Shown here: positions 3,917 to 55,068 of the stretch, in pieces | Layout of the letters: each line of letters opens with the position of its first letter | How positions within the stretch are numbered: the stretch's first letter is position 1 | Program-made: the position numbers and the translations under genes | The notes under the pieces: model-generated | The model's database searches: none | What the model saw: the letters and a program-made list of their open reading frames with translations, nothing else | Told to the model about the DNA's origin: nothing | NCBI RefSeq assembly: GCF_037042905.1 | Contig: NC_087245.1 | Coordinates: 9,736,001-9,800,000, forward strand | Direction: 5' to 3' | DNA: 64,000 nt | DNA from: Lytechinus pictus | Taxonomy: Eukaryota

Positions 3917-5002
3917 ACAGTCAGACCGCAGGTCCCTATGCTAATGAGCAAAAAGGCCAGATTCATCCAAATCATCTCGTGGCTGAATCCTCCTCCTTGC
4001 AAAATCTCGTGATTCGTGAGATTTTCTTTCTCTAAGAATTTACCTGTTTTAACCTCAAGTTAAATGAAATATTATTGCACCATCAGATAGAGTAAAAGTT
4101 ACTCTTTCATATTGGTCATTTATTTTGTATACAATATTTTGTTAAATAAGTAAATTTCTGGCCTGAAAATGTGCCTCAAAACTGAATTTTCTTCCTCTGT
4201 TTTCTTTTGCAAATTGTGCAAAACTTTTTATTTTGAGCCTCAATGATATTTATATCAACATAAAGCTGAACTTCTGTACTTTCTCACAATGCCACTCTTG
4301 ATATGCAGCACCTTTTAATCGGGTCAAGATCACACTTTTCCCACCAAGATACAAGACGAGATTTCTGAAATTTTGTCCTTGCATGAAATCCAGTGTTCTG
4401 ATTGGCTGGATAAGATTCACAGAACAACAGGCGCGGGGTATTTGAGGAGATTACCACATGGGAAGTGTGACCTTCCCACGAACCCAGGCACTGGAACCGT
4501 TGGAATTTGCCAGTGTGCGGTCTCTTTGACCAATCAGAGTGCAGTATTCTTGTTTTCAAGCTGCTTTATGTACTTGGCAAATGAAAAGTGTGATCTTGAC
4601 CCGATTAAACCAATTCTTATTATGAAACCTATATCATTTCAAAGCATACATATTCAGCTTTATCATGATATAAAAATCATTTGGGCTCAAACAAAAATAA
4701 AGTGTAAAAATAGTAGCTTTTGTCAGGTGAAAATATTTATTTTGTAGCATATCTTAGATCAAAATTTTAACCTATATTACAAAATCTTTGAATAAATCCA
4801 AACACATGACCTGAAAGAATGATTCTTCTTCTTTACAATGGTACCAAATTCATGAAATTCGATGCACAATTAGAGCAGCAATGACCGAATGAAAAGAGGT
4901 GTTTTGGTCCGCATCAAGCTCATTAAATATGCAAAACATCTCAAGTCATGAATATCACTTGGATGAAAGAAGCCACTTTCTTGGGACCTGCAGTCTGACT
5001 GT
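3917..5002. mobile_element. 1.09-kb TIR element, near-identical to 47571-48655
   Basis: TIR ACAGTCAGACCGCAGGTCCC...GGGACCTGCAGTCTGACTGT; flanked by CT/CT. Confidence 0.9.
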
Positions 5003-27516: not shown

Positions 27517-28710
27517 AACAAGTGGAGCAGTCTCACCTGCATTCAATATAGCAGCAGTGCTGACTTTGAAAACTACTATAAAATAATTATTCACAAAAAA
27601 AACCATTCATATAATGATACAATGCTACGTTCATTGACAATAAATGACATTGGACCTTGATCATGCGACCCAAGACTTGTCAGTGATACTTGATTACCCC
27701 TATATGCATAATTTATAAACTATATCTATAAACTTTGAAAGTTATGACAGCAATCTAATAATTACCTCCAAAATGGCCAAAGTTCAATGACCTTAAATGA
27801 CCTTTGACTTTGGTCATGTGACCTGAAACTCGCAAGAGATGTTCAATGATACTTGATTACTCTTATGTCTACGTTTCATGAATCAGGTCCATAAACTTTG
27901 AAAGTTATGATGGTAATTCAACAGATACCCCCAAAATTGGACAAAGTTCATTGACCTTTGTCCTTTGTCATGTGACCTGAAATTTGCACAGGATGTTCAG
28001 TGTGTGTGTGTGTGTGTGTGTGTGTGTATTTGAGTTTTGTCAGACGTGGATCAATCAGATATGATTATTTACGTCTGGGACCGACCTTTAACGTCACCAT
28101 CCGAAAGACGTGACCGGGGCTTGAACCTCTGCAACAATTTGTAACTTCCCCACATAGCTTGGATTACAGGCGCACGCCACAATGCCCAGTCAGTGATACT
28201 TGATGTCCAAGTTGTATGAACTAGACCAATAAACTTTCAAAGTTATGATGGTAATTCAACAAATACCCTTAATTTGGCCAAAGTTCATTGACCCTAAATG
28301 ACCTTTGACCTTGGTCATGTGACTCAAAACTCAGGCAGGATGTTCAGTAATACATGTACTTGATTAACCTTATGTCCAAGTTTCATGAACTAGGTCCATA
28401 TATTTTCTAAGTTATGATGACATTTCGAAAACTTAACCTTCGGTTAAGATTTTGATGTTGATTCCCCCAACAGGGTCTAAGTCATTGACCCTAAATGACC
28501 TTTTGCCTTGGTCATGTGACCTGAAACTCAGGCAGGATGTTCAGTAATACTTGATTAACCTTATGGCCAAGTTTCATGAACTAGGCCCATATGCTTTTTA
28601 AGTTATGCTGTCATTTTGAAAACTTAACCTTCGGTTAAGATTTGGTGTTGACGCCACCGCCGCTGTCGGAAAAGCAGCGCCTATACAGTCTCACTATGCT
28701 ATGCAGATAA
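27517..28710 (-). mobile_element. Helentron/DINE-1-like element, family A, interrupted by a SINE
   Basis: Family A termini and ~120-bp tandem units. Confidence 0.8.
28003..28189 (-). mobile_element. SINE with 7SL/Alu-like head, B box, Deu/Nin-like core and (CA)n tail
   Basis: Minus strand CTGGGCATTGTGGCGTGCGCCTGTAATCCAAGCTA...GGTTCAAGCCCC...GTCTTTCGGATGGTGACGTTAAAGGTCGGTCCC...(CA)n; TSD TCAGTG at 27997-28002 and 28190-28195, splitting the host unit ggatgttcagtgatacttga. Confidence 0.8.
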
Positions 28711-47570: not shown

Positions 47571-48655
47571 ACAGTCAGACCGCAGGTCCCTATGCTAATG
47601 AGCAAAAAGGCCAGATTCATCCAAATCATCTCGTGGCTGAATCCTTCTCCTTGCAAAATCTCGTGATTCGTGAGATTTTCTTTCTCTAAGAATTTACCTG
47701 TTTTAACCTCAAGTTAAATGAAATATTATTGCACCATCAGATAGAGTAAAAGTTACTCTTTCATATTGGTCATTTATTTTGTATACAATATTTTGTTAAA
47801 TAAGTAAATTTCTGGCCTGAAAATGTGCCTCAAAATTGAATTTTCTTTCTCTGTTTTCTTTTGCAAATTGTGCAAAACTTTTTACTTTGAGCCTCAATGA
47901 TATCTATATCACCATAAAGCTGAATTTCTGTACTTTCTCACAATGCCACTCTTGATATGCGGCACCTTTTGATCTGGTCAAGTTCACACTTTTCCCACCA
48001 AGGTACAAGACGAGATTTCTGAAATTTTGTACTTGCATGAAATCCAGAGTTCTGATTGGCTGGATAAGGTTCACAGAACAACAGGCGCGGGGTATTTGAG
48101 GAGATTACCACATGGGAAGTGTGACCTTCCCACGAACCCAGGCACTGGAACCGTTGGAATTTGCCATTGTGTGGTCTTTTTTACCAATCAGAGTGCAGTA
48201 TTCTTGTTTTCAAGCTGCTTTATGTACTTGGCAAATGAAAAGTGTGATCTTGACCCGATTAAACCAATTCTTATTTTGAAACCTATATCATTTCAAAGCA
48301 TACATATTCAGCTTTATCATGATATAAAAATCATTTGGGCTCAAACAAAAATAAAGTGTGAAAATAGCAGCTTTTGTCAGGTGAAAATATTTATTTTGTA
48401 GCATACTTAGATCAAAATTTTAACCTATATCACAAAATCTTTGAATAAATCCAAACACATGACCTGAAAGAATAATTCATCTTCTTTACAATGGTACCAA
48501 ATTCATGAAATTCGATGCACAATTAGAGCAGCAATGACCGAATGAAAAGAGGTGTTTTGGTCCGCATCAAGCTCATTAAATATGCAAAACATCTCAAGTC
48601 ATGAATATCACTTGGATGAAAGAAGCCACTTTCTTGGGACCTGCAGTCTGACTGT
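47571..48655. mobile_element. 1.09-kb TIR element in PIGA intron 9, near-identical to 3917-5002
   Basis: Same TIRs; flanked by TA/TA. Confidence 0.9.
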
Positions 48656-53640: not shown

Positions 53641-54452
53641 CTTGGATAGGAAAAGAAATTGCATACATTTTTATTTCTGCTCTAGAGACTGTTTCACAAA
53701 GAGTGATTTTAAATCGTACTTCAAGAGGAAATTAGTTCTAGTGGTGAATTTGAAAAATGAATGGAGGAAACTATCGGAAAACGATTGTGAACTGCTTATG
53801 ACGCACCTTCATGTAGGGAATAGTTTTCCTGGTATCACATTGCAATTTGCTCCACATTTTTTAAAGTGTAAGACTGCTACACAAAAATTATTTTGTGTAG
53901 CAGAATTTTTAATAGAATTAAAAAAAAGTGAGTTGAGAGCTTTTCTCTTATGACAAAAGCAAAAGTAATCCCTGTATATGTATTAAAGAAGAGATGTTGT
54001 TCTTAAATTGTATACTACAAAACATACATGTGTGAGAAAACTTGGGATGAATTTAAAAGACCTATTGAATTAAAACTCTACAACATTTATTTTGTATTCG
54101 TATAAAATTAAATTCATAGTTTACTTTCTGGTTCTCTCAAAAGTGAAATATGCTCTCTGATTGAGAAGGAATGTATCTTGAATTAAAGGGGGGTACCTTG
54201 CAATATTAAAAATTTATTGGTTTTTATAAAACATATCAGTCACCGTATTCTCAAACTATAAATGTAGATCTGTCATCATTAGCATCTATTTACCAATATG
54301 AGCTACATATATGCTTTCATAGACTGTACAGACACACATGCAATCGTGTCTATGCCTGGAAAATACAAAAAAAATTATATAAAAAAAATATTTATAATCA
54401 TTTCATATTTAACATGACACTGAAAATAGAGACAGTATGATTTTTCACCAAC

Positions 54453-54628
54453 CTTGTATGTGACACACAGATCACATGATTGACATCAGCCAATGAGAAC
54501 TGGAGGATTGCATTGGTGATAATTGAACTTGCGTCAGCAAAACCAAAGAGAGAATGGTCGGTAAAGACTGTTTTGAGACCCATGGTTTTGGCATGAAACA
54601 TGGCTTCATGGGCCATCGTAGAAAAGGA
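54453..54628 (-). CDS. PIGA: PIGA exon 5: [58 protein letters not shown](S)
   Basis: Diagnostic [13 protein letters not shown] motif; AG/GT boundaries, 176 nt, phase 0-2. Confidence 0.97.
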
Positions 54629-55068
54629 CTGATATAAAGAGATACCAAGAGGAGGTAAGAAAAGGGAGAGGGGAGAGAAAGGGAGCAGGAGAAGGGAGGA
54701 AGAGGAGGATTGAGGAAGAAGGGATGAAGGGGGAGGGGAGCAGGTGAGGGGGAGACGTGGATAATGGAGGAGGGACAGGTGAAGGGGAAGAAAGAAAGGA
54801 GAGGTGGAGGAAGGGAGGGAAGAGAAAGTGAAACAAAAGGAACAAAATGAGACAGAAAAACCTCAGAAAGAATCATGAATGAAAAGGGAATTATAAATTA
54901 TCAAAAACTTGCCAGGAAATTAAAAATAATTGATACTTTTGCACTGCATGATTTCTATGCATGCACAACTATATGATAATAATGCAAGAATAAGTCTAAT
55001 TGAATTATGAAGTTCTATCAGATAACAATTATGCCAAATACTAGTGACTATCTTATACATTACATTTT

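Follow-up and report, generated by a model that had tools for sequence, protein, structure and literature searches.

In a stretch of 64,000 nucleotides (nt) from the echinoderm Lytechinus pictus (assembly GCF_037042905.1, contig NC_087245.1, positions 9,736,001 to 9,800,000 of the forward strand; this whole stretch is called the window, and positions are given in its coordinates), we have identified a short interspersed element (SINE) whose head was, close to certainly on sequence grounds, derived from the host's own 7SL RNA. The element belongs to a real, young and dispersed SINE family of about 1,400 copies. We consider it highly probable that this family is a composite, non-autonomous SINE of about 172 nt plus (CA)n, in which a head from the 5′ domain of 7SL RNA is followed by a linker with a B box, a core resembling the Deu/Nin domains and a hairpin tail. 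A chimera of this kind had been proposed in an earlier note on this DNA, and the B-box-like GGTTCAAGCCCC, the segment GTCTTTCGGATGGTGACGTTAAAGGTCGGTCCC (28077-28109, minus strand), the hairpin, the (CA)n run and the TCAGTG duplication were all located where that note had placed them in the minus-strand reading. The parts of the element and its immediate surroundings are as follows.

27790..28420, strand not applicable: host dispersed/tandem repeat units of ~150-190 bp each; the insertion splits the middle unit.
28191..28195, minus strand: the target-site duplication in its 5′ copy, CACTG, to which the adjoining A at 28190 may belong unless it is part of the element.
28145..28190, minus strand: 7SL-derived head, 7SL positions 1 to ~44 (Rfam RF00017, identity with host 7SL, shuffles).
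28111..28144, minus strand: linker with the B box (28116-28127), which reads GGTTCAAGCCCC in the window copy and GGTTCGAGCCC in the family majority.
28077..28110, minus strand: Deu/Nin-like core CGTCTTTCGGATGGTGACGTTAAAGGTCGGTCCC (by-eye match to BivaMD-SINE1_AsNo, ~30/41 columns).
28041..28077, minus strand: 3′ stem-loop with an outer stem of 7 bp (CAGACGT/ACGTCTG) and an inner stem of 6 bp (folding, compensatory pairs).
28001..28040, minus strand: spacer ACAAAACTCAAATA and then the (CA)13 microsatellite tail, ending near 28001 (sequence).
27997..28002, minus strand: the target-site duplication in its 3′ copy, CACTGA, into which the CA run extends (sequence).

The element is a clean minus-strand insertion at 28003-28190, bounded by a CACTG(A) target-site duplication; it starts with ACTGGGCATTGTGG... 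at 28190, and its minus-strand reading opens with ACTGGGCATTGTGGCGTGCGCCTGTAATCCAAGCTATGTGGGGAAGT, which leads through a 19-nt linker into GGTTCAAGCCCC. The length of the duplication (TCAGTG on the plus strand) is given as a range of 4-6 nt because the CA run extends into its 3′ copy. In two adjacent units of the host repeat, nothing interrupts the sequence across the insertion point, and these units represent paralogous empty sites; with the flanking duplication, they bear out the retroposition into a host repeat unit that had been read from the letters alone. The window copy differs from the family majority by two CpG-type changes, both of them from G to A, at G8 of the head and in the B box. 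Also, we noticed that the window copy (28003-28195) and another, independent copy (L009:1501-1690) sit at the identical position, directly after ...AAGTATCAC, in diverged units of one host repeat, which suggests that targets with CAC/CA microhomology to the tail are preferred.

When the head/body junction was searched as a 30-nt pattern with at most two mismatches, 692+725 = 1,417 matches were found in the 811-Mb assembly, and the reversed control gave 0+0. In the genome search with the window element, the best copies were 96-98% alike; among the best 42 rows of 1,545 first-look candidates, 40 were at least 96% identical over at least 167 nt, the other two being a copy of 91% identity and a fragment of 53 nt. 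Given this likeness, the family may still be active and polymorphic. A majority string of 172 nt plus tail was obtained from 32 aligned copies, in which few columns vary (T/C at position 39 in 23 and 9 copies, and scattered CpG changes), and the C/A run after the ...CTCAAAT anchor has a median of 14.5 nt in these copies, tail lengths being variable. At least 20 contigs carry copies, and most of these have unrelated flanks; shared flanks among the 32 were seen for L006 and L028 on both sides and for L015_2724 and L016_1676 on the 3′ side only. Exact junction-adjacent target duplications of at least 5 nt accompany 8 of the 32 copies, whereas re-paired flanks gave 0.74 on average and never more than 4. 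By eye, 1-3 extra bases at the 5′ junction set the duplication off from the element in several further copies. Many of the duplications start with CA(C), which suggests microhomology with the tail. Copies truncated at the 5′ end are also found, with truncation points that differ. The junction matches against an empty control, the target duplications and the empty sites therefore identify the insertion as one member of a multi-copy, retroposed SINE, as had been supposed. Nor is the head peculiar to the window copy: it adjoins the body in 85 of 88 distinct body-bearing copies, a sample biased in that its loci were fetched with parts of the element itself, and the other three copies are truncated or rearranged.

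Seven full-length 7SL genes were found in the host assembly by Rfam (272-283 bits), and the first 30 nt of the family majority are identical to one of them, the gene in locus L037 (30/30), and match each of the other six at 29/30. Against the 7SL gene in L031, the majority aligns at 35/36 with one gap, an inserted A. The local alignment of the head with host 7SL scores 60, a value that none of 1000 shuffles reached (highest 26). In terms of the Rfam model Metazoa_SRP (RF00017; SRP, signal recognition particle), the head of the window copy matches positions 1-44 with 24.8 bits (E 8.8e-5) and a consensus-like copy the same positions with 29.6 bits (E 2.5e-6), the gathering threshold of 70 bits for the 299-position model not being reached by matches confined to these positions. 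In the Rfam alignment, helices 2, 3 and 4 are paired, and the family majority preserves both the UGUAAU turn and the AGCUA loop; the U-turn for SRP9/14 binding, said in the earlier note to be kept, is indeed retained. In terms of the SRP Alu domain, the head thus represents the 5′ domain, with the stretch homologous to the A box of 7SL and Alu inside it. Beyond about nt 46, similarity to 7SL on either strand is at the chance level, 521 of 1000 shuffles scoring as well; a 7SL origin for the rest of the element was accordingly rejected, and the element holds only the 5′ domain of the Alu domain. The idea of a 7SL-derived head is hence well upheld, with the amendment that the source is not the human 7SL used for comparison at the outset but that of the host.

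As to which 7SL gene supplied the head, most host 7SL genes close helix 2 with ACC...GGU, and the gene in L037 and the SINE both have the compensated pair ACU...AGU; this sequence feature points to an L037-like 7SL as the donor. The ACU...AGU helix 2 of the L037 gene (contig 12), as opposed to those in L031-L036, is either the donor type or the result of conversion by a SINE copy. An older-looking subfamily (L038) reads ...CCAGCTACGTGG, without the extra A and closer still to 7SL, and the ...CTATGTGG of the main subfamily is a CpG transition of that ...CCAGCTACGTGG.

Two further observations concern the head and the 7SL genes. The head also matches the human Rfam family mir-1268 (window 28140-28192, minus strand, and L002:1499-1551) with 23.9 and 28.6 bits against a threshold of 83. 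We take mir-1268 to be Alu-derived, and the match is a side effect of the 7SL likeness, not a microRNA. On contig 10, moreover, three tandem 7SL genes are each preceded, at a distance of 34 nt, by the end of a SINE variant, and one of the units carries two copies. The copies lie as follows, with the 7SL gene starting at 1501 of each locus.

L031:877-1034 and L031:1290-1447: SINE copies upstream of the 7SL gene.
L035:1294-1451: SINE copy upstream of the 7SL gene.
L036:1315-1451: SINE copy upstream of the 7SL gene.

In this variant, the head is shortened at its end (...CCAAACTATGGGAGTTA-TTGATG) and the B box is duplicated; duplication of the 7SL gene unit seems to have carried the insertion along. 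The copies occupy the place where upstream promoter elements would be expected.

Downstream of the head, the majority carries a B box at nt 66-76, GGTTCGAGCCC, which is of the canonical tRNA type and foreign to 7SL. Since the A box and the B box of human 7SL have been placed at 6-15 and 76-86 (Kojima 2020, PMC7245038, in the portion available), only the A-box region is 7SL-derived in the present element. The core that follows was compared by eye with the printed sequences of BivaMD-SINE1_AsNo/TeGr (supplement file 2 of PMC4824008), where about 30 of 41 columns agree over ~40 nt with the segment after the Meta-domain. A partial Deu (Nin) domain is stated to follow the Meta-domain in BivaMD-SINE1 (PMC4824008), and from this wording, as far as the available text goes, we infer that the aligned segment represents Deu. 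Assignment of the core to Deu/Nin is accordingly put forward as a lead, not a statistic. A search with nhmmer over the ~345 kb of fetched loci gave no other family with this core.

The tail of the element is structured. In one family copy, the stem-loop folds with -13.0 kcal/mol (z -4.38), and none of 200 shuffles folds as well. A pattern with mismatches allowed led to a homologous tail hairpin in a second retroposon family, which ends in (AAC)n in place of (CA)n (L095:70-131 and L096:68-129, both on the minus strand, and L097); about 380 first-look candidates of this family show 83-94% identity and variable 5′ truncation, and L096 has two (AAC)n tails in tandem. In an alignment of four tail sequences, 98% of the cells pair, compared with 23-40% in the slid controls, and the two kinds of tail differ by A-U to G-C in the outer stem and by A-U to U-A in the inner stem; this covariation compares two families only and is thus modest support for the fold. 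The stem-loop is presumed to be the recognition signal for the reverse transcriptase of a partner long interspersed element (LINE).

From these parts, a route for the origin and spread of the family can be proposed. Module 1 (nt 1-46) is a copy of the 5′ end of the host 7SL RNA, comprising the complete 5′ domain of the Alu domain, and its source would be the 7SL variant seen in the L037 gene, with which it has the ACU...AGU helix-2 pair in common. Module 2 is the short linker with the type-2 B box GGTTCGAGCCC (nt 66-76), module 3 the Deu/Nin-like core of ~35 nt, and module 4 the stable stem-loop followed by ACAAAACTCAAATA(CA)n. The chimera would most likely have been born by template switching from a SINE RNA to 7SL RNA, or else by DNA recombination. 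RNA polymerase III (Pol III) would start at nt 1 through a hybrid internal promoter, made up of the 7SL A-box region and the foreign B box, and the 3′ hairpin and (CA)n of the transcript would then be recognised by the reverse transcriptase of a putative “stringent” LINE with a microsatellite tail. Target-primed reverse transcription would give rise to the duplications of 4-8 nt often starting with CA(C), the occasional 5′ truncation and the few extra bases at the 5′ junction.

It is another matter what the head does for the element. By analogy with Alu, for which this has been shown, the 7SL head might bind SRP9/14 and bring the RNA to ribosomes; we advance this role tentatively and give it somewhat less than an even chance. 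The reading that competes with it is evenly balanced in our judgement: the head would be a promoter or 5′-end module only, with no role in SRP9/14 binding or ribosome docking, and the likeness to Alu would be one of origin and not of mechanism. Indeed, just the 5′ domain has been kept, with no 7SL likeness after about nt 46, whereas every described 7SL SINE retains both the 5′ and the 3′ parts of the Alu domain, and a LINE-type hairpin tail already provides specific recognition without ribosome docking. A module needed for its promoter alone, on the other hand, is not easily reconciled with the intact UGUAAU turn, helices 2, 3 and 4 and AGCUA loop of the majority, nor with a helix 2 kept by a compensated pair; furthermore, the 50-nt 5′ domain alone is said to bind SRP9/14.

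Several results weigh against the composite SINE as we have described it. The partner LINE was not found: tail patterns in which the upstream bases of the SINE were forbidden picked up, at 0 or at 3 mismatches, nothing but copies of the SINE itself that are rearranged or contain indels, a search that could detect near-exact tails only and is not evidence of absence. The autonomous LINE with the same 3′ hairpin and (CA)n tail that the earlier note had in view therefore did not come to light with these near-exact patterns. Similarly, no reverse-transcriptase frame was seen in 1.5 kb upstream of the one copy of the (AAC)n-tailed family that was examined. No tRNA-headed parent sharing the linker and the B box was found, either; a pattern for these two parts, with the last bases of the head forbidden, gave 16 matches, all of which are mutated members of this family. 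For the fusion of a 7SL head onto a Deu-type tRNA-SINE, as had been suggested, the by-eye resemblance of the core to Deu/Nin is a lead, and a tRNA-headed parent did not come to light with this pattern. The folding energy of the head alone and of the whole element is no better than that of shuffles (z 0.12 and 0.00) and provides no independent thermodynamic support for the structure of the head. SINEBase, as far as its rule is described in PMC3531059, calls for at least 60% identity with tRNA, 5S or 7SL RNA over at least 60 nt, and the 7SL overlap of ~46 nt is shorter than this, though its identity is far above 60%; in size and dispersal, the element (~172 nt plus tail, on 20 or more contigs) falls within what SINEBase describes as less than 1 kb, interspersed and non-tandem. 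Finally, not every copy represents a separate retroposition: 43 of the 1,417 junction copies (~3%) have been multiplied as passengers of a repeat longer than 3.2 kb, and there are passengers among the tandem dimers, too.

These passengers deserve attention, as they would favour an explanation in which a single chance chimeric retrocopy has been multiplied as DNA, in larger repeats or by segmental duplication. The junction between the SINE and the repeat longer than 3.2 kb has 43 matches in the genome (18+25; control, 0), tandem dimers at three loci share their flanks, and the three 7SL genes on contig 10 each have a copy of the element 34 nt upstream. We nonetheless consider this explanation very improbable: the flank formed by that repeat is found in only those 43 junction copies, the 32 aligned copies have mostly unrelated flanks, many with target duplications of their own and with tails of varying length, and the points of 5′ truncation differ among copies. 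The repeat itself (L047-L054; e.g., G000:C3:77029937-77033140) has internal tandem units of ~115/228 bp and 671 first-look candidates, and carries one passenger SINE at a fixed junction; in three identical copies of this repeat, a 5′-truncated SINE tail is inserted exactly at the passenger junction. A tail in L015 preceded by foreign sequence, which had been considered as a lead to the partner LINE, is such a 5′-truncated SINE at the junction of a passenger copy, and a diverged tail in L067 is an old truncated SINE copy in a host repeat. The dimers (L039, L040 and L041 on contigs 7, 18 and 2, respectively) are head-to-tail pairs of the subfamily with the duplicated B box, are joined by (CA)n-TA and score ~34 bits with Metazoa_SRP. 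They share at least 300 nt of flank on both sides and are hence copies of one locus in a larger repeat; mobile dimers in the manner of Alu were rejected for this reason.

The head could alternatively be that of a degenerate tRNA, its 7SL likeness arising by chance or from shared Pol III promoter motifs, given that a canonical B box follows it and that the DeuSINEs described so far carry tRNA or 5S heads. This alternative is effectively refuted on the sequence data, since the identity with host 7SL is 30/30 starting from nucleotide 1 of both and is unmatched by any of the 1000 shuffles, and since the head matches the SRP model at E 2.5e-6, whereas no match to the tRNA model RF00005 was obtained in the element at E up to 10 and none by ARAGORN. 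Contamination with human Alu or an assembly artefact, which the match to mir-1268 might bring to mind, is practically out of the question, because the head is identical to host 7SL at the places where the latter departs from the Rfam metazoan consensus, because the body joined to it, with its (CA)n tail, is not mammalian, and because the element is embedded in host repeats, flanked by target duplications, on at least 20 contigs.

The composite SINE with a 7SL head can now be compared with the 7SL SINEs described elsewhere, so far as the available text of the cited papers allows. These SINEs have been called “extremely rare” (PMC13023118). The element SINE1-1_EBu (Ebu1-1) of the hagfish Eptatretus burgeri was presented as the first evident SINE1 outside Euarchontoglires; it arose when 7SL and a tRNA-SINE were fused into a chimera, has RTE as its partner and retains the Alu domain in both halves (Kojima 2020, PMC7245038). 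Vassetzky et al. 2026 (PMC13023118) added the shrew mole, no 7SL SINE having been reported outside supraprimates and hagfish before, according to the part of that paper available. All known 7SL SINEs are described there as having arisen after a central deletion of ~183 nt, and the supraprimate SINE1 families share the 7SL regions 1-63, 76-83 and 267-299 (PMC7245038). The reports of 7SL-headed SINEs from hagfish and amphioxus, which the earlier note had mentioned, hence proved correct for hagfish; for amphioxus no report was found, and the text of PMC7245038, in the portion available, has 0 mentions of it.

Like Ebu1-1, the present element joins a 7SL head to the body and tail of a SINE that does not depend on L1, is young, has a microsatellite-type tail and is independent of Alu and B1, and its copy number is likewise in the low thousands (2,363 in hagfish, PMC13023118). 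Unlike the present element, however, Ebu1-1 is similar to the 3′ terminus of 7SL at nt 97-140 and thus has the whole Alu domain, together with an RTE-derived bipartite body/tail and (AAC)n; the element described here keeps 7SL positions 1 to ~44 only and combines them with a non-7SL B box, a Deu/Nin-like core, a hairpin and (CA)n in an invertebrate host. With Alu, FLAM, B1, Tu and Urop (PMC13023118), it has in common a head that begins at nucleotide 1 of the host 7SL and retains the A-box region and the SRP9/14-binding U-turn. Those elements are almost wholly 7SL, with the central deletion of ~183 nt, the 3′ half of the Alu domain, poly(A) and L1 as partner, whereas 7SL accounts for only 46 of the ~172 nt here and a LINE-type hairpin followed by (CA)n forms the tail. 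In terms of SINE1, therefore, the element has the 7SL-derived head but does not retain both ends of 7SL after a central deletion of ~183 nt.

A comparison with the DeuSINE/Nin-DC group, including SINE2-3_SP of the sea urchin and BivaMD-SINE1 (PMC4824008, PMC5804259), is also instructive. In that group, too, the organisation is modular, with a head, a conserved core and a LINE-type tail, and the central motif GTCACG..TCTTTCGGATG..GAC.TTAAA..GGTCCC of the present element resembles the segment of BivaMD-SINE1 after the Meta-domain (PMC4824008). The shared stretch is ~35-40 nt here, however, in comparison with the named domains of 70-330 nt (the Deu domain being 330 bp and the Nin domain about 70-120 bp, as these sources have it). 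Furthermore, the described members have tRNA heads, or 5S heads plus a partial tRNA, whereas the head here is 7SL. The DeuSINEs of the AmnSINE1/SINE3 type (PMC4824008, PMC4758252) offer a parallel in that a head from another small RNA has been substituted for the 5′ portion of the earlier one, some of whose promoter region persists, the donor being 5S rRNA in these vertebrate elements and 7SL RNA in the present one. In mode of origin, the nearest to our element, within the accessible portions of these papers, are the hagfish element and this replacement of a tRNA head by 5S in the vertebrate DeuSINEs.

In the literature up to 2026, with Repbase, Dfam and SINEBase outside the comparison, no 7SL SINE was found beyond supraprimates, hagfish and shrew mole, and none of an echinoderm, amphioxus or mollusc. 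A 25-mer of the core and a 26-mer of the head/junction likewise had no occurrence in the literature, the 11-mer matches being unrelated primers. The family might then be the first 7SL-derived SINE lineage outside vertebrates, with the “Alu trick” performed independently in an echinoderm, and the first to consist of only the 46-nt 5′ domain with a foreign B box; for this priority we would put the chance just short of even. Independent origins of 7SL SINEs can be counted on one hand, and an invertebrate case with a different architecture would be a natural experiment on the role of the 7SL part. If the head recruits SRP9/14, the minimal 5′ domain would suffice to dock the RNA at ribosomes, and L1 would not be the only LINE open to this strategy, which could also serve with a stringent LINE that recognises a hairpin; without such recruitment, a role as Pol III promoter and start module would by itself be enough for a 7SL head to be selected. 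The family thus makes it possible to ask whether the 5′ domain alone is enough for SRP9/14 binding and efficient mobilisation, whether ribosome docking is relevant for LINEs that recognise a specific 3′ structure, and how new SINE heads are acquired.

Besides the SINE, the window contains two near-identical open frames of 142 codons, at 4319-4747 and 47973-48401 on the plus strand and 43.6 kb apart; the frame at 47973-48401, which was scanned, has no Pfam match, and the pair is probably part of a dispersed repeat. On the minus strand, an open frame at 54398-54862 has a domain of PIGA, a protein of GPI-anchor (glycosylphosphatidylinositol) biosynthesis (Pfam PF08288, E 7e-14), and is probably an exon of the host PIGA gene.

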